The position numbers and the translations under genes were made by a program. The notes under the pieces were generated by a model. The model did no database searches. It worked only from the letters and a program-made list of their open reading frames with translations, and was not told the origin of the DNA. Shown here in pieces: positions 9,453 to 17,688 of a stretch of 64,000 bases of DNA. The stretch lies in IMG/VR virus record IMGVR_UViG_3300023179_000019. One strand, 5' to 3'. Position 1 is the stretch's first letter. Every line of letters begins with the position of its first letter. This DNA comes from a virus.

Positions 9453-9513
9453 TGTTGTTTAAATACAACACCCAGTAAAAAGTGCTTGACAATTTTACTG
9501 GTTCGTGTAGAAT
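9453..9513 (+). promoter_or_regulatory. sigma70 promoter (TTGACA 9486, TAGAAT 9508) with upstream TGTTG-N8-CAACA palindrome (9453-9470)
   Basis: Direct motif match; same architecture at 54983, 56004 and 62927. Confidence 0.75.
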
Positions 9514-9523
9514 ACGTACTATC

Positions 9524-9553
9524 GATTGAGAAATCAATCATTGTTCTTTAAAA
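9524..9553 (+). promoter_or_regulatory. rrn-like boxB (GATTGA-GAAA-TCAATC) plus boxA (TGTTCTTTAAAA) antitermination leader
   Basis: GNRA hairpin followed by a 10/12 match to boxA TGCTCTTTAACA. Confidence 0.6.
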
Positions 9554-9569
9554 GTTTGATGCAGTATGT

Positions 9570-9645
9570 GCTCGGTTCATCTAGTGGCCTAGGATAGTGC
9601 CCTTTCACGGCATTCACACCGGTTCGAATCCGGTACCGAGTACCA
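9570..9645 (+). tRNA. tRNA-Glu(TTC)
   Basis: Cloverleaf, CCA. Confidence 0.94.
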
Positions 9646-9838
9646 TATTAAAGTTTATTGCGTTGACAAGTCCATTAGGGGATTGTTCAAGATAACGGGA
9701 CGGCGGTCACCGGTCTATGAACACTCATGATAGCCGTTACGAAGGTGATGGGTTGCTTGTTTGTAATGACCGCATACAGCGCAGGATCGCAGCCTGTGAA
9801 AAAGAAGTATGCAAGGTTCGCAATAAATTTTAATATGG
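9643..9838 (+). ncRNA. Unknown structured RNA closed by a 20-bp stem
   Basis: CCATATTAAAGTTTATTGCG / CGCAATAAATTTTAATATGG; internal GCGGTCA/TGACCGC and GCATAC/GTATGC helices. Confidence 0.6.
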
Positions 9839-9859
9839 TATAATAATGCTTCATAAATT

Positions 9860-9936
9860 GCCTCGGTGACGGAATTGGTATACGTGTTGGTCTTAGAAGC
9901 CAAATTTTGAGAGTTCGAGTCTCTCCTGAGGCACCA
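9860..9936 (+). tRNA. tRNA-Leu(TAG), short variable loop
   Basis: Cloverleaf, CCA, 5-nt variable region. Confidence 0.88.
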
Positions 9937-9945
9937 AATTTAGAT

Positions 9946-10028
9946 GCGACTGTGGTGAAATAGGTAAACACAGCAGACTTAAAATCTGCCGCTTCGGCTT
10001 GCCGGTTCGATTCTGGCCAGTCGCACCA
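9946..10028 (+). tRNA. tRNA-Leu(TAA)
   Basis: Cloverleaf, variable arm, CCA. Confidence 0.94.
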
Positions 10029-10044
10029 AATTGGAAAAGTTTTT

Positions 10045-10125
10045 GGTTGTTCTAAAGGCCAGACCGCGCTGAAATATGCTCAAGGGCGAGGCGGAGAACA
10101 TTAAATGGGGACGACCGCCTCAGCC
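10045..10125 (+). ncRNA. Candidate pseudoknotted RNA
   Basis: TGTTCT/AGAACA interleaved with GAGGCGG/CCGCCTC; GC-rich spacer. Confidence 0.35.
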
Positions 10126-10130
10126 ACCCT

Positions 10131-10285
10131 ATTTTATAGTTAAGTGTTATCAGGGTAACGTGTATGGACGCATACACTATACGGGCCTAACTGTGCGAGG
10201 AACAGGTCCTGAGATAACCGTTATTCGCTTGTCAGATTTAGCTAATTTGTTGACAAATAGACACGATAACACTTAACTATAAAAT
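10131..10285 (+). ncRNA. Unknown structured RNA closed by a perfect 21-bp stem
   Basis: ATTTTATAGTTAAGTGTTATC / GATAACACTTAACTATAAAAT; internal GTGTATG-GACG-CATACAC hairpin. Confidence 0.6.
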
Positions 10286-10287
10286 TT

Positions 10288-10362
10288 GGTCCCATAGTAT
10301 ATCGGTTAGTATAGCGGCTTGTCACGCCGTTGAGGCGAGTTCGACTCTCGCTGGGACCGCCA
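10288..10362 (+). tRNA. tRNA-Asp(GTC)
   Basis: Cloverleaf, CCA. Confidence 0.94.
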
Positions 10363-10369
10363 AGTTTAT

Positions 10370-10445
10370 TCCTCGATAGCTCAGTTGGTAGAGCACCGGA
10401 CTGTTAATCCGTAGGTCCCTGGTTCGAGCCCAGGTCGGGGAGCCA
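10370..10445 (+). tRNA. tRNA-Asn(GTT)
   Basis: Cloverleaf, CCA. Confidence 0.95.
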
Positions 10446-10449
10446 AATT

Positions 10450-10533
10450 GGAGATGTGGCAGAGTGGTCGATTGCAGCAGACTGTAAATCTGTTCTTAAC
10501 AGCACGGTGGTTCGAATCCATCCGTCTCCACCA
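10450..10533 (+). tRNA. tRNA-Tyr(GTA)
   Basis: Cloverleaf, variable arm, CCA. Confidence 0.94.
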
Positions 10534-10543
10534 TTTATTATTT

Positions 10544-10617
10544 GCCTCCTTAGTTTAATGGTAGAACTCCGTCTTTACACGGCGGTTACGGCAGTTCGAT
10601 TCTGTCAGGAGGTACCA
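10544..10617 (+). tRNA. tRNA-Val(TAC)
   Basis: Cloverleaf, CCA. Confidence 0.93.
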
Positions 10618-10623
10618 AGTTTC

Positions 10624-10698
10624 GCCCGATTAGCTCAGTGGTAGAGCAACCGCCTTGTAAGCGGTAGGTCGTCTGTTCAATCCAGACATTGGGCACCA
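10624..10698 (+). tRNA. tRNA-Thr(TGT)
   Basis: Cloverleaf, CCA. Confidence 0.94.
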
Positions 10699-10704
10699 TT
10701 TCAT

Positions 10705-10781
<77 letters not shown>

Positions 10782-10786
10782 ACTAT

Positions 10787-10862
10787 GGGGGATTAGCTCA
10801 GCTGGGAGAGCAGTAGCTTTGCAAGCTAAAGGTCAACGGTTCGATCCCGTTATCCTCCACCA
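10787..10862 (+). tRNA. tRNA-Ala(TGC)
   Basis: Cloverleaf, G3:U70, CCA. Confidence 0.95.
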
Positions 10863-10865
10863 ATC

Positions 10866-10942
10866 GCCTCAATAGCTCATTCGGTTAGAGCACCGTCTTG
10901 ATAAGGCGGGGGTGCCTAGTTCGAATCTAGGTTGAGGCACCA
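10866..10942 (+). tRNA. tRNA-Ile(GAT)
   Basis: Cloverleaf, CCA. Confidence 0.94.
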
Positions 10943-10946
10943 ATAT

Positions 10947-11020
10947 ATCTCGATAGTGTAACGGCAGCATACCGGTCTCCAAAACCGTTGGTCGGGGTTC
11001 AAATCCCTGTCGGGATGCCA
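10947..11020 (+). tRNA. tRNA-Trp(CCA)
   Basis: Cloverleaf, G73, CCA. Confidence 0.92.
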
Positions 11021-11023
11021 AAT

Positions 11024-11097
11024 GCGGGGTTAGTTTAATGGTAAAACTGTAGATTTCCAATCTTCCGTTGAGAGTTCGATTCTCTCACTCCGCTCCA
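11024..11097 (+). tRNA. tRNA-Gly(TCC)
   Basis: Cloverleaf, U73, CCA. Confidence 0.92.
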
Positions 11098-11117
11098 ATT
11101 ATAAGAAGGACATTATC

Positions 11118-11588
11118 ATGCGTAAATTAAATCTAGACAACGTTATTTCTTTCATTGAACAGCAATCACCTGAAACCAAAGTTTATATTGGATGTGATTC
11201 TGAGAGAGTAATGGTTGATGGAACACCTTACGCAGATTATGTTCTTGCTATCGTAGTACATATTAATGGAAATAATGGATGCAAAATTTTTGGTGAAGTT
11301 ATTCGTGAAAGAGATTTTGACCAGAAACGAAGTAAACCTAGATACAGATTAATGAATGAAGTTTACAAAGTTTCAGAGTTGTATTTGAAACTTGCAAATG
11401 TTCTAGTTGATCGTGATATTGAAGTGCATTTGGACATTAATCCAAATGAAATGCACGAATCATCTTGTGTCATTAATGAAGCTGTTGGATATATAAAAGG
11501 AACATGCAATATTATTCCTTTGGTTAAACCCGAAGCCTTTGCTGCTACGTATGCAGCAGACAGATTTAAGACACTAAAAGCAGCATAA
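11118..11588 (+). CDS. RNase H-like YkuK/DUF458 family protein
   Basis: VYIGCDS, RLMNEV, EVHLDIN, KPEAFAATYAAD. Confidence 0.8.
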   Translation: MRKLNLDNVISFIEQQSPETKVYIGCDSERVMVDGTPYADYVLAIVVHINGNNGCKIFGEVIRERDFDQKRSKPRYRLMNEVYKVSELYLKLANVLVDRDIEVHLDINPNEMHESSCVINEAVGYIKGTCNIIPLVKPEAFAATYAADRFKTLKAA

Positions 11589-11593
11589 CAAAT

Positions 11594-11669
11594 GCGGGAA
11601 TAGCTCAGTTGGTAGAGCACTTCCTTGCCAAGGAAGATGTCGAGAGTTCGAACCTCTTTTCCCGCTCCA
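11594..11669 (+). tRNA. tRNA-Gly(GCC)
   Basis: Cloverleaf, CCA. Confidence 0.95.
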
Positions 11670-11687
11670 AATTAAAAAATCCAAATT

Positions 11688-11765
<78 letters not shown>

Positions 11766-11782
11766 AATTTACCAAAAATAAC

Positions 11783-11811
11783 TTGACAAAGCGATATAAG
11801 TATAGTAGAAT
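11783..11811 (+). promoter_or_regulatory. sigma70 promoter TTGACA-17-TAGAAT
   Basis: Consensus match just before the tRNA-like RNA and groES. Confidence 0.75.
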
Positions 11812-11820
11812 GATATAAAT

Positions 11821-11887
11821 GCGGTGTGTAATAGTACGGCGTAGGATTCCCTCTTACGTTACCTGAGCAAAGCAGAACACCGCTCCA
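11821..11887 (+). ncRNA. Non-canonical tRNA-Gly-like RNA (67 nt)
   Basis: GCGGTGT/ACACCGC-T-CCA acceptor, 7-bp arm with ATTCCCT loop, degenerate D and T arms. Confidence 0.6.
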
Positions 11888-11908
11888 TTTCTATTAAAGG
11901 CCTTCATC

Positions 11909-12154
11909 ATGAATTTAAAACCAACTGCATCAAACGTATATATTACCAGAATCGCTTCAGAAAAGCAAACATCTTCTGGTATTATTTTAAAAAGTTCCGA
12001 AGAGCCAGATAAAGCAAGAGTCGAATCTATCGGCAAAGATGTAACCGACCTTTCTATCGGCGATATCATTCTTGTTAATTGGAACAAAGCAATCAAAATT
12101 GAAAAAGACTCATACATCATCCCATCAGAAGATGTGGTTTTGGTGTTCGAATAA
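11909..12154 (+). CDS. groES: Co-chaperonin GroES-like
   Basis: LKPT, EKQTSSGIIL, VESIGKDV..LSIGD. Confidence 0.85.
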   Translation: MNLKPTASNVYITRIASEKQTSSGIILKSSEEPDKARVESIGKDVTDLSIGDIILVNWNKAIKIEKDSYIIPSEDVVLVFE

Positions 12155-12159
12155 AATAT

Positions 12160-12234
12160 AGCGGGGTAGCGCAGTAGTAGAGCACCGGGCTCATAATCCG
12201 GAGGTCGGTGGTGCGATTCCACCTCCCGCAACCA
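12160..12234 (+). tRNA. tRNA-Met(CAT), initiator-like
   Basis: 1:72 mismatch, GGG in the anticodon stem, CCA; atypical T-loop TGCGATT. Confidence 0.85.
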
Positions 12235-12254
12235 AATAAAGAAAGAGATATAAA

Positions 12255-12566
12255 ATGGAAATCTTGGCACTCAAATTAATTACTGGCGAAGATGTTTTGG
12301 GTGAAGTTGAATCTCAATCCGAAACTGAATTTGTAATTTGTAATCCTGTTGGAATCTCTATCGTTCGAGGTAAAGATGGCCAACCTAACGTAGGGTTCTC
12401 ACCTTTTCCACTACACGCTGAACAAAAAACAGGCACAACTATTGCCTTGGCGAAGAAAAATGTAGTATACTCATACACTCCTGCGGAAGATTTTATTTCA
12501 AATTACAATCAAATTTTTGGTTCAGGTATTATTCTTCCGCAAACTAAATCATTGATTACGGGATAA
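12255..12566 (+). CDS. T4-like hypothetical protein (Sm-like fold suspected)
   Basis: LKLITGEDVLGEV ... YNQIFGSGIILP; directly upstream of gp43. Confidence 0.75.
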   Translation: MEILALKLITGEDVLGEVESQSETEFVICNPVGISIVRGKDGQPNVGFSPFPLHAEQKTGTTIALAKKNVVYSYTPAEDFISNYNQIFGSGIILPQTKSLITG

Positions 12567-12569
12567 CAG

Positions 12570-13865
12570 TTGAGTTCTAATTTTTATACTAATGTACAAT
12601 GCTTCGGTAATCATATACTTTATCGTGGCATTAAAGATGGAAAAAGAGTCAAAGAGAAGGTAGATTATTCACCTTCTCTTTATATTCCATCCAGACGTAT
12701 AACAAACTTCACCTCACTTGAAGGTGATTATCTGGAACAAAAAACTTTTGAAACAATACGTGAGTCCCGTGATTACATTAAACAATTTGAAAGTGTTCAA
12801 AATGCTCCAAAGATTTATGGTCAAACTCGATTCGAATATGCGTTCATTGCGGATCAACATCGAGGTATGGTTGATTATGAACAAGATAAAATATCGATTG
12901 CGGTAGTCGATATTGAAGTTGGTTCTGAAAATGGATTTCCTGATCCATACGAAGCGAATGAACCAATCACAGCTATTTGTATTAAGTACATCAATGGCGA
13001 CACATATGTTTTTGGTTGCGGAATATATGAAACAAAAGGCAAAGAAATTTATGTAAAGTGTAGGGACGAATACTCACTTTGCAAACAGTTCATGGCTTTG
13101 TGGACTAAAAAGTGTCCTGATATTCTCACTGGTTGGAATACAAAGTTCTTTGATGAACCTTACATTATCAATCGTTTCCGTAAAATTCTTGGTGAAGATG
13201 AAACCAAAAAATTGTCTCCATGGAATTACATCGGAGAAAGAAACACCTTTGTAAACAATCGTTCAATGATTGCTTATAATTTGATGGGTGTCGAATCACT
13301 CGACTACATCGAACTATACAAATGGTATGCGCCAGGTGGCAAATCGCAAGAATCATATCGTCTAGATGCTATTGCTCAAGTTGAATTGGGTGAAGGTAAA
13401 ATTTCTTATGATGAATACGATAATCTACATTCACTCTATCGTTTGAACTTTCAAAAGTTTATTGAGTATAACATCAAAGACGTTGAACTGATTATCAAGC
13501 TAGAAGAAAAACTTAAACTCATCGAATTGGCAGTTACACTTGCGTATGATACCAAGACAAACTATCAAGATGTGTTCGCACAAACCCGTATGTGGGATTC
13601 AATGACATATGCCTATCTATTTGAGAAAGGCATTATTGTTCCTCCACGTATCGTCAAAGAAAAAGATTCCGCATTTGAAGGTGCATATGTTAAGATACCT
13701 CAGGTAGGATTGCATGATTGGGTGGCATCGTTTGACTTAAACAGTCTATATCCTCATTTGATGATGCAATATTCAATTTCACCAGAAAACCTTGTGGAAA
13801 GAAGTTACATTAAAGATAGAAAGCAAAAACTAATTGAGGAGTTAAAGTTGAGAAATACTAAATAA
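12570..13865 (+). CDS. gp43: Family B DNA polymerase, N-terminal fragment (exonuclease plus motif A)
   Basis: DIEV, GWNTKFFD, YNIKDV, SFDLNSLYP; ends at TAA shortly after motif A. Confidence 0.95.
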   Translation: MSSNFYTNVQCFGNHILYRGIKDGKRVKEKVDYSPSLYIPSRRITNFTSLEGDYLEQKTFETIRESRDYIKQFESVQNAPKIYGQTRFEYAFIADQHRGMVDYEQDKISIAVVDIEVGSENGFPDPYEANEPITAICIKYINGDTYVFGCGIYETKGKEIYVKCRDEYSLCKQFMALWTKKCPDILTGWNTKFFDEPYIINRFRKILGEDETKKLSPWNYIGERNTFVNNRSMIAYNLMGVESLDYIELYKWYAPGGKSQESYRLDAIAQVELGEGKISYDEYDNLHSLYRLNFQKFIEYNIKDVELIIKLEEKLKLIELAVTLAYDTKTNYQDVFAQTRMWDSMTYAYLFEKGIIVPPRIVKEKDSAFEGAYVKIPQVGLHDWVASFDLNSLYPHLMMQYSISPENLVERSYIKDRKQKLIEELKLRNTK

Positions 13866-13890
13866 GTAGATGTGGTTACTTATTAGGAGA
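13858..13890 (+). promoter_or_regulatory. Late-promoter-like CTAAATA plus RBS-occluding hairpin for the HNH gene
   Basis: CTA(A)ATAAGTA/TACTTATTAG stem reaches into the AGGAG SD. Confidence 0.6.
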
Positions 13891-13894
13891 ATCA

Positions 13895-14428
13895 ATGAAA
13901 TACAATATTACCAAAGATAAACTCTATGAATTGTTTATTACCAATAATATGAGAAGGAGTGAGGTTGCTGAATACTTTGGTTGTTCAGATGCCAATATTA
14001 AAAAATACCTACAAAAATTTGACATTAAGAAGCCTTTTGATTTAGAATGTAAGAATAAAGAACGAAAGGCTTTGTTAAATTGTTTGCATTGTGGTAATGA
14101 ATATGAAACACAAAAGTTCCGTACCGAAAGTGAGAAATATGATTCAAAATATTGTAGTTATTCGTGTGCTCAAAAAAGTAGGTATTTGGGTGAAGAACAC
14201 AAACGTAGAATCAGAAATGAAATTGCAGCAAGGCGTAGAGCAAGAATACGTAATCAAACTCCAAAATTAAGTAAAGAAGAAAAGAAAAAGTTACAGGAAT
14301 ATTATTTGATTTGTCCCAAAGGACATGAAGTGGACCACATACAATCAATTGCCAAAGGTGGTTTACATCATCCTGATAATTTACAGATATTGACTAAAAC
14401 TGAAAACAGAAAGAAGTGGATGAAATGA
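13895..14428 (+). mobile_element. Free-standing HNH homing endonuclease inside gp43
   Basis: N-terminal HTH, CLHC/YCSYSC zinc motifs, HEVDHIQSIAKGGLHHPDNLQIL...N. Confidence 0.88.
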
Positions 14429-14622
14429 TGAAAACTCCAACCATATTTTCTGCCGACCAGATTAAATCTTGGGATGTTCAATCCGCAGGAAAAAATGGTT
14501 TGTGGACTCAAGCAAGGCCAATGTCTTATCCGGGTTTTAATCTTTGGAAAAGATTATCTGCAGCATGGATGGTATTCACCGGCAAAGCTGATGTGTTAAT
14601 TTGGTTTTCGGAGAATGATTGA
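14425..14622 (+). CDS. Small hypothetical passenger gene between HNH and the gp43 C-fragment
   Basis: Translationally coupled overlaps at both ends. Confidence 0.6.
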   Translation: MMKTPTIFSADQIKSWDVQSAGKNGLWTQARPMSYPGFNLWKRLSAAWMVFTGKADVLIWFSEND

Positions 14623-15977
14623 TGTTTAGTAATGTAAAAGAATTAACGACTGAAGAACTACAAAAAGAACTTCAGGCCATAGAATTGTTCGAACAAGAAA
14701 TCGGTAAAGTCAATGTGAATAATTTATTGGCCAAATCAGTTGATACTTCTTTTCTAGTTCCAATGAAATGCACCATCACACCTAATGGCCAGCTATTTAG
14801 AACCGACCATCAAGGCTTCTTGCCTAAGATGATGGAAGAAATGTACGAAGATCGGAAAAAGTTTAAAAAGTTGATGCTTCAGGCTAAACAGGAATATGAA
14901 AATGAATCTGACGGATCCAAAAAATATGAAATTGAAAAACGAATTGCCAAGTATAACAATATACAACTTGCAAAGAAGGTTTCTCTCAATTCTGCTTATG
15001 GCGCTCTTGGTAGCCAGTATTTCCGCTTTTATGATTTGCGAATGGCTCTTGGGGTCACTACTGCTGGTCAGTTGTCTATTCGGTGGATTGAAAACAAAAT
15101 AAATGAATACATGAACAAATTGCTCAGTACAGATAAAGATTATGTAATCGCTTCTGATACTGATTCGATTTATCTACGCATGGGTGAATTGGTGAATAAG
15201 TTCATCAAAGATACTTCTGACAAACAGAAGGTGATTTCTCTCATGGATAAAATCTGTGAAGAAAAATTACAACCATATATCGACAAATCATATAAAGAGT
15301 TGGCGGATTACGTACACGCTTATCAGCAAAAGATGGAGATGAAACGTGAAGGTTTATCTGACAAAGGTATCTGGACAGCCAAGAAGCGTTATATCCTAAA
15401 CGTGTATAATAACGAAGGCGTTCAGTATAAAGAACCACAGATGAAAGTTATGGGTTTGGAGATGATCAAATCTTCAACTCCTTCTTCTATTCGTGAGAAG
15501 ATGAAAGAAGCAATCGAACTCATGGTAAATGGCACACAAGAAGATATACACACATTTATTGCCAGTTTCAGAAAAGATTTCAAAAAGTTACCAGCTGAAG
15601 AAATTTCTTTCCCTAGAGGTCTGAACGGACTAAACACTTACTCGGATGCTGTCACACTATATAAAAAGGGAACACCGATTCACGTTAAAGGTGCTATACT
15701 ATATAATCATTACCTTAAACAAAAAGATTTAACTAAAAAATATCCGCTTATTCAAGAAGGTGAAAAACTAAAATTTACTTATCTAAAAATGCCTAACCCA
15801 TTTAAAGATACTGTCATATCATACCCTTCACGTTTACCTAAAGAGTTCGAATTACAGGAATACATTGATTATGATATGCAATTTGATAAGGCCTTTTTAG
15901 AACCGATTAAAGTGATTCTAGATTGTATGGGTTGGTCGACCGAAAAAACAAGTTCCATCGAGGATTTTTTTGTATGA
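14622..15977 (+). CDS. gp43: Family B DNA polymerase, C-terminal fragment (motifs B and C, thumb, clamp-binding tail)
   Basis: KKVSLNSAYG, SDTDS, KKRY, C-terminal SSIEDFF. Confidence 0.95.
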   Translation: MFSNVKELTTEELQKELQAIELFEQEIGKVNVNNLLAKSVDTSFLVPMKCTITPNGQLFRTDHQGFLPKMMEEMYEDRKKFKKLMLQAKQEYENESDGSKKYEIEKRIAKYNNIQLAKKVSLNSAYGALGSQYFRFYDLRMALGVTTAGQLSIRWIENKINEYMNKLLSTDKDYVIASDTDSIYLRMGELVNKFIKDTSDKQKVISLMDKICEEKLQPYIDKSYKELADYVHAYQQKMEMKREGLSDKGIWTAKKRYILNVYNNEGVQYKEPQMKVMGLEMIKSSTPSSIREKMKEAIELMVNGTQEDIHTFIASFRKDFKKLPAEEISFPRGLNGLNTYSDAVTLYKKGTPIHVKGAILYNHYLKQKDLTKKYPLIQEGEKLKFTYLKMPNPFKDTVISYPSRLPKEFELQEYIDYDMQFDKAFLEPIKVILDCMGWSTEKTSSIEDFFV

Positions 15978-17080
15978 TATACATAACACTACTTTCAGCA
16001 ATACTGTTATCCGGCATCGCAGCATATTATTCCGTTATCGGCCTCGCTGCTATTTTTACCGGCGCCTTTTGGCCTATTGTTTTTATGGGTTCCGTACTTG
16101 AACTCAGTAAACTAGTTACAACTTCTTGGTTGTATAGGAATTGGAAAACTTGTCCAATTCTACTTAAAACATATTTGACTGCTGCTGTAGTTATATTGAT
16201 GTTGATTACCAGTATGGGTATTTTTGGTTTCTTGTCTAAATCACATATCGATTCCACATTGGATGCTGGTGCCAATTCAGTTGAAATTAAAACACTGACA
16301 CAACAAGAAAAAATCACTAAAGAAAGATTGGAATATTTGCTTGCTCGTGCTAAAGATCCATCAACCGCAAGTAATAGATTAGATAAACAAATCCAAGAAA
16401 CTCAAAAAGAATTAAAAGACATTGCAAATAGAAAATTACCACTTTTACGTGAAGAAAATAAATTAATTGCGGAAGTTGGGCCAATCAAATATGTTGGTGA
16501 ACTGGTGTATGGCAGCAATGATGATAATGCCATCGATAAAGCAGTTCGTCTGGTAATCATGTTGATCATGGTTGTATTTGACCCTCTAGCTGTGTTATTA
16601 TTAATAGCAGCAAATATGTCCATGAAAAAACCAGAAGTTGAAAAAGAGTTAGAAGAAGAAACACCAGATCCATATGTTGCTGATGTGGGAGAAAAACCAA
16701 CCGAAGAAGAAAAACAAATTGAAGAAGATACACCTAGTGAAGTAGTTTTGACTGAAGAAAAAATAATTGAAATGGCAAATGAGATAAACGATAAAATACA
16801 AGAACTCAATAATAATATTGCCAAGATGAATGAAAATAAAGATGAATCGACTATCAATGTTGATAAAGAAAACGTAACAACAATAGAAGAAAATAAACCA
16901 GAACCATTTGCACATGATCCTGTAACAGATGAAGAAATTGTTTTAGAACCGGTTCGTAGAGAAGAACATCATGCTCCTGGCGTATATACCGAACACCATG
17001 AGGTTGTTGAGGTAAAAAAAAAGTTGGAACCAAAATATGATTATACTGCTGAGTACGCTTTTAAAGAAAAAGAAAAATAA
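15974..17080 (+). CDS. Membrane protein with coiled coil and acidic tail
   Basis: Three N-terminal TM segments, EVGPIKY, VFDPLAVLLLIAAN. Confidence 0.8.
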   Translation: MIYITLLSAILLSGIAAYYSVIGLAAIFTGAFWPIVFMGSVLELSKLVTTSWLYRNWKTCPILLKTYLTAAVVILMLITSMGIFGFLSKSHIDSTLDAGANSVEIKTLTQQEKITKERLEYLLARAKDPSTASNRLDKQIQETQKELKDIANRKLPLLREENKLIAEVGPIKYVGELVYGSNDDNAIDKAVRLVIMLIMVVFDPLAVLLLIAANMSMKKPEVEKELEEETPDPYVADVGEKPTEEEKQIEEDTPSEVVLTEEKIIEMANEINDKIQELNNNIAKMNENKDESTINVDKENVTTIEENKPEPFAHDPVTDEEIVLEPVRREEHHAPGVYTEHHEVVEVKKKLEPKYDYTAEYAFKEKEK

Positions 17081-17085
17081 TTATA

Positions 17086-17688
17086 ATGTCTAACATAGAA
17101 AAATATGGTTTTCATGTTGTTCCTAATATTGTAGGAAAAGAGACTTGTGAATTAATTTCCAGGTCTTTATTGCTTTTGAGGTCGAATTATAACCATGAAA
17201 ATAACTTGAGTGATGATTCTTTTAAAGGTGATGGCTTAGTTGAAAAATCTTTTAGTAAGTATGGAGTAAATTGTTTGGAAGCATTGTCTGAGATGTTGTT
17301 ACCAAAAGTCGAAGAAGTTGTAGGTAAACGACTAGTGCCCACATACACATACACTAGAATATATTTCAATGGTGCCGAAATGCAAGAGCATACGGATCGA
17401 CCGAGTTGTCAATATTCAGCAACACTAACGCTATCAATTTCCGACAAACCTTGGGAGATTCATTTTAGGGACATTACAAAAAAAGAAAGATCAATAAGTT
17501 TGGACGTAGGTTCAATGTGTGTTTATAGAGGTATGGATGTTCCTCATTGGCGAAATAGATATGAAGGCAAAGAACAAATTCAAGCCTTCATTCATTATGT
17601 TGATATTGATGGTCCATATGCAAAATTTAAGTATGACGGTCGACCAATGTTGGGACTACATCCCAGCACAAGGCGTAAAGACATTTAA
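17086..17688 (+). CDS. 2OG-Fe(II) oxygenase
   Basis: HTDRPSCQYS, YRGMDVPHWR. Confidence 0.8.
   Translation: MSNIEKYGFHVVPNIVGKETCELISRSLLLLRSNYNHENNLSDDSFKGDGLVEKSFSKYGVNCLEALSEMLLPKVEEVVGKRLVPTYTYTRIYFNGAEMQEHTDRPSCQYSATLTLSISDKPWEIHFRDITKKERSISLDVGSMCVYRGMDVPHWRNRYEGKEQIQAFIHYVDIDGPYAKFKYDGRPMLGLHPSTRRKDI

Follow-up and report, generated by a model that had tools for sequence, protein, structure and literature searches.

Homing endonucleases usually enter essential genes hidden inside introns or inteins, and the locus described here raises the question of how such a gene can come to lie openly within the coding sequence of a replicative enzyme. The locus is found in the virus record IMGVR_UViG_3300023179_000019 of the IMG/VR database, of which a stretch of 64,000 nt (referred to here as the window) was analyzed. 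In this window, which comes from a T4-like phage, gp43, the gene for the family B DNA polymerase (PolB), is present as two open reading frames (ORFs), gp43A (12570..13865) and gp43B (14622..15977), which lie 753 nt apart and have an HNH endonuclease gene and a small ORF between them. An earlier note, made from the letters of the sequence without database searches, had proposed that a basic helix at the end of gp43A and an acidic helix at the start of gp43B act as a zipper that reassembles the enzyme without splicing. From the analysis of this locus and its relatives, we consider it likely that gp43 has been split by an HNH cassette and that the two resulting chains assemble without splicing, with the extensions at the break aiding in this.

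Lateral Acquisition of the HNH Cassette

Relatives of the locus were drawn from IMG/VR, and in the clade to which the window belongs (clade I) a total of 66 unsplit and 13 split junctions were examined. The nearest relative (L003, on contig G001) possesses an unsplit gp43 with an open frame of 846 aa, sharing 94.6% protein identity with gp43A in its front part and 96% with gp43B in its rear part. No homolog of the HNH gene was identified in this contig. The window and L003 are collinear over 14 kb with 94–98% DNA identity, and the sole large difference near gp43 is a stretch of 977 nt in the window which replaces 106 nt in L003. The DNA of the window is 97–100% identical to that of L003 up to about position 13769 and again from about position 14811, while between these two points it matches other split alleles (85–93%) instead. 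This shift in identity delimits a laterally acquired block (13770..14810, plus strand) made up of donor-type polymerase flanks, the two extensions, the HNH gene and the small ORF. As the 977-nt stretch holds both extensions, these came in together with the endonuclease. Judged from the sequences, the pattern of identity has the signature of homing-type gene conversion with short co-converted flanks.

The same was apparent on a wider scale from a core tree of polymerase alleles built with the junction left out. The split state requires at least seven changes among 78 alleles of this tree, five of which are forced by well-supported branches, and the HNH gene is present in some alleles and absent in others, with co-converted flanks. 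These comparisons show that the HNH gene takes the stop, the start and both extensions along with it when it moves. The window itself is nested in an otherwise unsplit group, its sister being an unsplit allele with 99% identity over the core. That identity bears on the possibility of the split gp43 being a dead gene, with another polymerase replicating the genome. This is barely credible, given also that both halves are intact and retain all motifs, that the split alleles are many and diverged, with a ratio of nonsynonymous to synonymous substitution rates (dN/dS) of 0.07–0.10 in the core, and that the split is present in three clades. Against named phages, a megablast search returned no match.

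Extensions at the Break

The unsplit clade I genes, all 66 of them, share one layout in which a native segment of 15 aa lies between conserved flanks. In the split genes of this clade these 15 residues are replaced by a C-terminal extension of gp43A of 21 aa (the C-tail; residues 411–431, 13800..13862, plus strand, net charge +4 to +5 in the window) and an N-terminal extension of gp43B of 29 aa (the N-head; 14622..14708, plus strand, net charge −4), with gp43A ending 21 residues past the last residue common to unsplit relatives. Neither extension has a counterpart at the junction in any of 118 unsplit relatives (66 of clade I and 52 of a second clade, clade II, described below). The alignment to unsplit relatives hence confirms the suggestion of the earlier note that the tails are additions, and the helices proposed there were found in none of these 118 unsplit loci. 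When the N-head was used as a search query, the 56 matches obtained were all C-halves of PolB; it was not found in other protein families, nor in proteins of more than 790 aa, the latter being weak evidence. A wider occurrence of the tails among fractured genes, which had been raised in the earlier note, was seen to the extent that homologous N-heads occur in three gp43 clades, but they are confined to PolB C-halves.

Selection on the extensions was assessed with 24 distinct clade I alleles. The C-tail gave a dN/dS of 0.21 and the N-head one of 0.24, with the adjoining core at 0.10 and 0.07, respectively, and the HNH gene at 0.07 (24 alleles). All three elements of the cassette are therefore under purifying selection as proteins. 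Both extensions are also kept in two split alleles that lack the HNH gene (L009 and L021).

Structure prediction was conducted with AlphaFold2 on the window gene read through, with its stops entered as glycine to imitate the complex. The C-tail was predicted as a helix at residues 411–429, with the predicted local distance difference test score (pLDDT) dropping from 85 to 66, and the N-head as a helix at about residues 10–30 of gp43B (pLDDT 79–91). The two predicted helices are similar in length, as is expected for one leaving the palm and the other returning to it. These models speak for helical extensions and say nothing on their pairing. As to the origin of the extensions, a duplication of the native 15-aa segment at the target was considered as a candidate and rejected, with similarity to that segment not being significant for either of them (profile permutation p about 0.2 for both).

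Gene Order and the Question of Splicing

The four ORFs of the region are co-oriented on the plus strand. The product of gp43A (431 aa) comprises the exonuclease domain and motif A (Pfam DNA_pol_B_exo1 and DNA_pol_B), with motif A located approximately 40 residues before its end. This ORF is followed by an intercistronic spacer of 29 nt (13866..13894), the free-standing HNH homing endonuclease gene (177 aa, 13895..14428), the small passenger ORF (65 aa from its ATG, 14425..14622, with a longer start at 14416) and gp43B (451 aa from its ATG), which encodes the rest of the palm, the fingers, motif C and the thumb (Pfam DNA_pol_B). The small ORF overlaps both of its neighbors, its own start lying over the HNH stop and its own stop over the gp43B start. 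The latter is probably the ATG at 14622, which is kept in relatives, has GGAGA 8 nt upstream and overlaps the small-ORF stop, with a TTG at 14619 being the less probable start. The catalytic motifs A and C are encoded on different polypeptides. For this gene order, namely a gp43 split in two ORFs by an HNH gene and a small ORF, the coordinates and motif assignments made in the earlier note were correct, as were its counts of charged residues (8 K/R and 3 D/E in the C-tail, 7 E and 3 K in the N-head).

The break occurs in the palm, past motif A and before the helices of the fingers, at about residues 425–450 of T4 gp43; in the alignment, T4 residue 452 is the counterpart of gp43B residue 52. 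At this site cyanophage gp43 has a loop of five residues, compared to the 15-residue segment in the clade of the window, and the site is therefore a variable surface element.

Phage polymerase genes often contain inteins or introns, and gp43A and gp43B share a reading frame in the window, as they would if the ORFs were joined later into one polypeptide, whether through ribosomal bypass, a cryptic intron or a split intein in degenerate form. Such joining is nevertheless highly improbable. Pfam identified no Hint or intein domain in either half, PolB domains being the sole matches, and Rfam identified no intron across positions 9500–17500 at a permissive threshold, its matches being tRNAs upstream, in agreement with what the earlier note had read from the sequence. 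With 21 and 29 aa the extensions are too short for intein halves, and they have neither the junction nucleophile nor the terminal His-Asn. The halves are out of frame with each other in many alleles, including HNH-less ones in which the spacer is ~20–26 nt. Furthermore, gp43B has a conserved ATG with a Shine-Dalgarno sequence, and the extensions evolve as coding sequence.

Further Clades and Cassette Variants

A search with the HNH protein identified 32 further split loci of clade I, and homologous cassettes were also found in more distant polymerases. In clade II, gp43 is 42–53% identical to that of the window and the HNH protein 47–51% identical, with the break at exactly the same site. The unsplit relatives of this clade are cyanophage-like, and one sample held 52 unsplit and 12 split junctions. 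The junction is made up of five residues in the unsplit genes, as against a tail of 14–16 aa and a head of 29 aa in the split ones. A third type (clade III) is represented by the loci L135 and L136. The N-heads are homologous across the three clades (scores of 48–58 versus 18 ± 3.5 for shuffled sequences) and the C-tails of clades II and III are related to each other (p 0.002).

A number of split alleles have a different content between the polymerase halves. In L009, which has no endonuclease gene, the C-tail is joined directly to the final nine codons of the HNH gene, which points to an internal deletion. The absence of the endonuclease from L021 represents another deletion. At the same break, L162 and L034 carry a different endonuclease-like ORF of 171 aa.

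Additional cuts of the polymerase gene were observed at two loci. In L107 (L107:4034-6251), gp43 is in three pieces, with the C-half recut at about residue 95–115 by an ORF of 258 aa. This second cut falls at the finger tip, a site known from Aeromonas phages, and the ends of the pieces are again changed. In L110 (L110:1155-3471), the N-half is itself split just past the Exo I motif by an ORF of 275 aa. In this group of phages, gp43 seems to be an insertion hotspot.

Possible Role of the Extensions

The earlier note relied on complementary charge for the pairing of the two extensions. This is observed in clade I, where tails have a mean net charge of +2.9 and heads one of −3.2 and the signs are opposite in 21 of 21 pairs; the native 15-aa segment of the unsplit genes has a mean net charge of −2.3. 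Over all pairs, the charges of tail and head are anticorrelated (rho −0.66), which is essentially one evolutionary contrast and as such a suggestive hint of compensation and no test of it.

There are a number of results that weigh against the extensions having a role in assembly. The complementarity of charge is not kept in clade II, with mean net charges of −1.2 for the tail and 0.0 for the head and one allele at −2 and +3, nor in clade III, in which values counted from the sequences are near 0 and −2. The amphipathic character of the two predicted helices is weak, with a hydrophobic moment that is ordinary for the clade I C-tail in comparison to shuffled sequences (p 0.52) and borderline for the N-head (p 0.056). 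No significant similarity was detected between the C-tail of clade I and those of clades II and III. In addition, when gp43B was folded alone the head was predicted with a pLDDT of 86–90, as confidently as in the presence of gp43A, so that the comparison of folds with and without the N-half, proposed in the earlier note, gave no sign of mutual dependence. From other enzymes it is known that an engineered split of Pfu PolB works tail-free (PMC3061061) and that the NrdA heterodimer of phage Aeh1 forms without the need of its tails (PMC3045599).

These results would be accounted for if the extensions were passive baggage from the donor, with the halves assembling through their large native interface. 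This is an unlikely explanation, however, as the dN/dS of 0.21–0.24 in the extensions signifies constraint at the protein level, and the head has been kept in three clades between which the HNH genes share only about 50% identity. Retention of both extensions after loss of the HNH gene also speaks against it, and no split allele without extensions was seen. A role of the extensions in assembly is plausible on these grounds, although a simple and conserved charge zipper is not supported. Their most likely arrangement would be that of two paired helices, or of a small bundle formed together with the surface of the palm, and electrostatics may contribute to it in clade I.

Proposed Mechanism

The mechanism by which gp43 was split and by which the split spreads is well supported. 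A free-standing HNH cassette is situated in the palm region of gp43, in a surface segment whose length varies among T4-like phages. The cassette forms a unit, flanked by donor-type polymerase sequence of about 30 nt on one side and about 100 nt on the other. Within these flanks, the 21 codons of the C-terminal extension end in a stop and are followed by the conserved 29-nt spacer, which contains a ribosome-binding site. Next come the HNH gene and, in some cassettes, a small ORF, and last the 29 codons of the N-terminal extension, which have a start of their own. The cassette spreads into unsplit alleles by recombination, presumably by homing after the HNH protein has cut them. Translation of gp43B would proceed by coupling to the upstream ORF, together with its own Shine-Dalgarno sequence. 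The two chains would then associate unspliced into a working enzyme with motifs A and C apart. The extensions would most likely stabilize the cut palm, packing either on each other or on the neighboring surface, and their role would mirror that of the tails of Aeh1 NrdA-a and NrdA-b.

A more far-reaching suggestion, which is offered tentatively, is that the extensions, and chiefly the 29-aa head of gp43B, are a portable antidote at the protein level that is encoded by the cassette. Equipped with a stop, a start and assembly peptides of its own, the cassette could on this reading enter the coding region of an essential polymerase by homing, in phages whose gp43 genes are only ~45% identical, with no intron or intein involved, and the split could persist as a landing pad once the endonuclease has been lost or replaced.

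The HNH Gene, Its Spacer and Neighboring Genes

The HNH ORF of the window was assigned from its similarity to a PHROG family of HNH endonucleases (E 3.7e-13) and to the Pfam HNH family, the score of 20.3 bits for the latter being slightly below the cut-off of 21.4. Its homologs in clades II and III pass this Pfam threshold with 34.9 and 30.1 bits. A tblastn search with the HNH protein gave short C-terminal matches only, in seven Synechococcus phage records. Free-standing genes with a more distant relationship to the HNH gene were observed between gp55 (sigma factor) and a gp47-like ORF of 345 aa (among L138-L161), in the gene order uvsW, gp55, HNH, gp47, gp46, and one sits between the terminase and portal genes.

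The 29-nt spacer after the gp43A stop has an AGGAG preceding the HNH start. It is nearly invariant in 15 distinct alleles, despite synonymous sites nearby being saturated. A hairpin of 9–10 bp, rich in A and U, can be formed within the spacer, its 3′ arm reaching into the AGGAG and overlapping the ribosome-binding site of the HNH gene. The stability of this hairpin alone is not significant (z = −1.0), and its arms are invariant across alleles, which leaves no covariation signal possible. It may function as a translational brake, like one reported for mobE.

The small ORF, which belongs to PHROG 21988 (unknown function), is found in only part of the cassettes, and homologs of it were also observed elsewhere in arrays of small phage genes (L164-L169). 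Among the loci where the slot between the HNH gene and gp43B was examined (L083, L086, L094, L096, and L128), its content varies, with ORFs of 64, 74 or 100 aa. Four ORFs are present there in L094, and L128 has an ORF of 151 aa for a putative Dam-methylase-like protein.

Just upstream of gp43, the window carries an array of at least 16 tRNA genes (9570–12231). In comparison to L003, this region has ~160 additional nt (10126–10285) and is short of ~130 nt (at 11678–11688). A gene for a Cpn10/GroES-like co-chaperonin (81 aa, 11909–12154) is also located directly upstream of the gp43A region, and a conserved ORF of 103 aa (PHROG 527, unknown function; 12255–12566) directly precedes gp43A.

Significance

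Experimental proof that tails assist the assembly of a fractured gene has up to now come from a single phage enzyme. This is an already published concept to which this locus adds a new combination of enzyme and site, and the novelty claimed for it in the earlier note was overstated, as assembly of this kind, with the same polarity of the tails, was shown for Aeh1 NrdA (PMC3045599). The locus does offer a second enzyme, a replicative polymerase with motifs A and C on separate chains, along with strong population evidence that the tails belong to the mobile unit. It also comes with matched natural controls, these being an unsplit allele with a 99% identical core, split alleles that either have or lack the endonuclease, another endonuclease in its place at the same break and homologous cassettes in three deep clades. 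Such controls open to direct test the need for these peptides, their mode of action and their possible joint transfer with the endonuclease. There is also a practical aspect, in that gp43 is a marker gene of environmental T4-like phages and its split pieces are easily called as fragments, which affects both annotation and phylogeny.

Comparison with Known Systems

Function of a family B polymerase in the form of two non-covalently bound chains is known from a natural split in Methanothermobacter and from an engineered split of the Pfu enzyme (PMC3061061). Both of these differ from the locus described here in the position of the split, and they have neither an endonuclease nor added tails. Split inteins, such as those of cyanobacterial DnaE and Nanoarchaeum PolB, resemble it in that a polymerase is encoded by two genes whose products would find each other through short appended segments, electrostatically complementary in the case of gp43 in clade I. 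Unlike the extensions of gp43A and gp43B, they splice and remove themselves, whereas here there is no Hint domain, there are no splice-junction residues and the extensions are far shorter.

Natural splits of gp43 have been described in phages 44RR, 25, 31, 65, and 133, where, according to two reviews, the break is at the finger tip and the 43A and 43B products form a working two-subunit PolB (Petrov et al., 2006, 2010, as described in PMC3061061 and PMC2988022). Such loci are similar to that of the window in having 43A and 43B cistrons in a gene that is an insertion hotspot, with a short untranslated spacer between the cistrons in some alleles and a homing endonuclease gene in others. The reviews mention no extensions at splits of the 44RR/25/133 type. 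The position differs, as the window has its break in the palm, past motif A and ahead of the fingers, and so does the endonuclease, that of phage 25 being described as seg-like and intron-coupled as opposed to the HNH type found here. In phage T4, genes 39 and 60 also have a homing endonuclease gene (mobA) between the two halves of an enzyme gene, although the enzyme is a topoisomerase. Tail-like extensions with a similar distribution of charge were noted for these two genes by Crona et al. (PMC3045599).

Among the closest known systems is also nrdA of Aeromonas phage Aeh1, which is split by the HNH-family endonuclease gene mobE (Friedrich et al., 2007). Its unique tails arose with the insertion and are essential for activity, the C-tail being basic and the N-tail acidic, and they act in the assembly of the higher-order complex rather than of the heterodimer; the same was predicted to hold for further genes in pieces, T4 genes 39 and 60 among them (Crona et al., 2011, PMC3045599). 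In both systems a free-standing homing endonuclease fractures the gene of an essential enzyme near its active site with no splicing involved, the insertion-derived tails are absent in unsplit homologs, and the C-tail is basic and the N-tail acidic (in the case of gp43, in clade I). Relatives of the endonuclease are located between genes of other phages in both cases, here between gp55 and gp47, and mobE has an intergenic position in most phages. The target in Aeh1 is a ribonucleotide reductase and here it is PolB, with the role of the tails in the polymerase being read from sequence. While one genome was cited for Aeh1, the split of gp43 is represented by dozens of split and unsplit alleles from three deep clades, among which there are also alleles that have lost the endonuclease and alleles in which it has been replaced.

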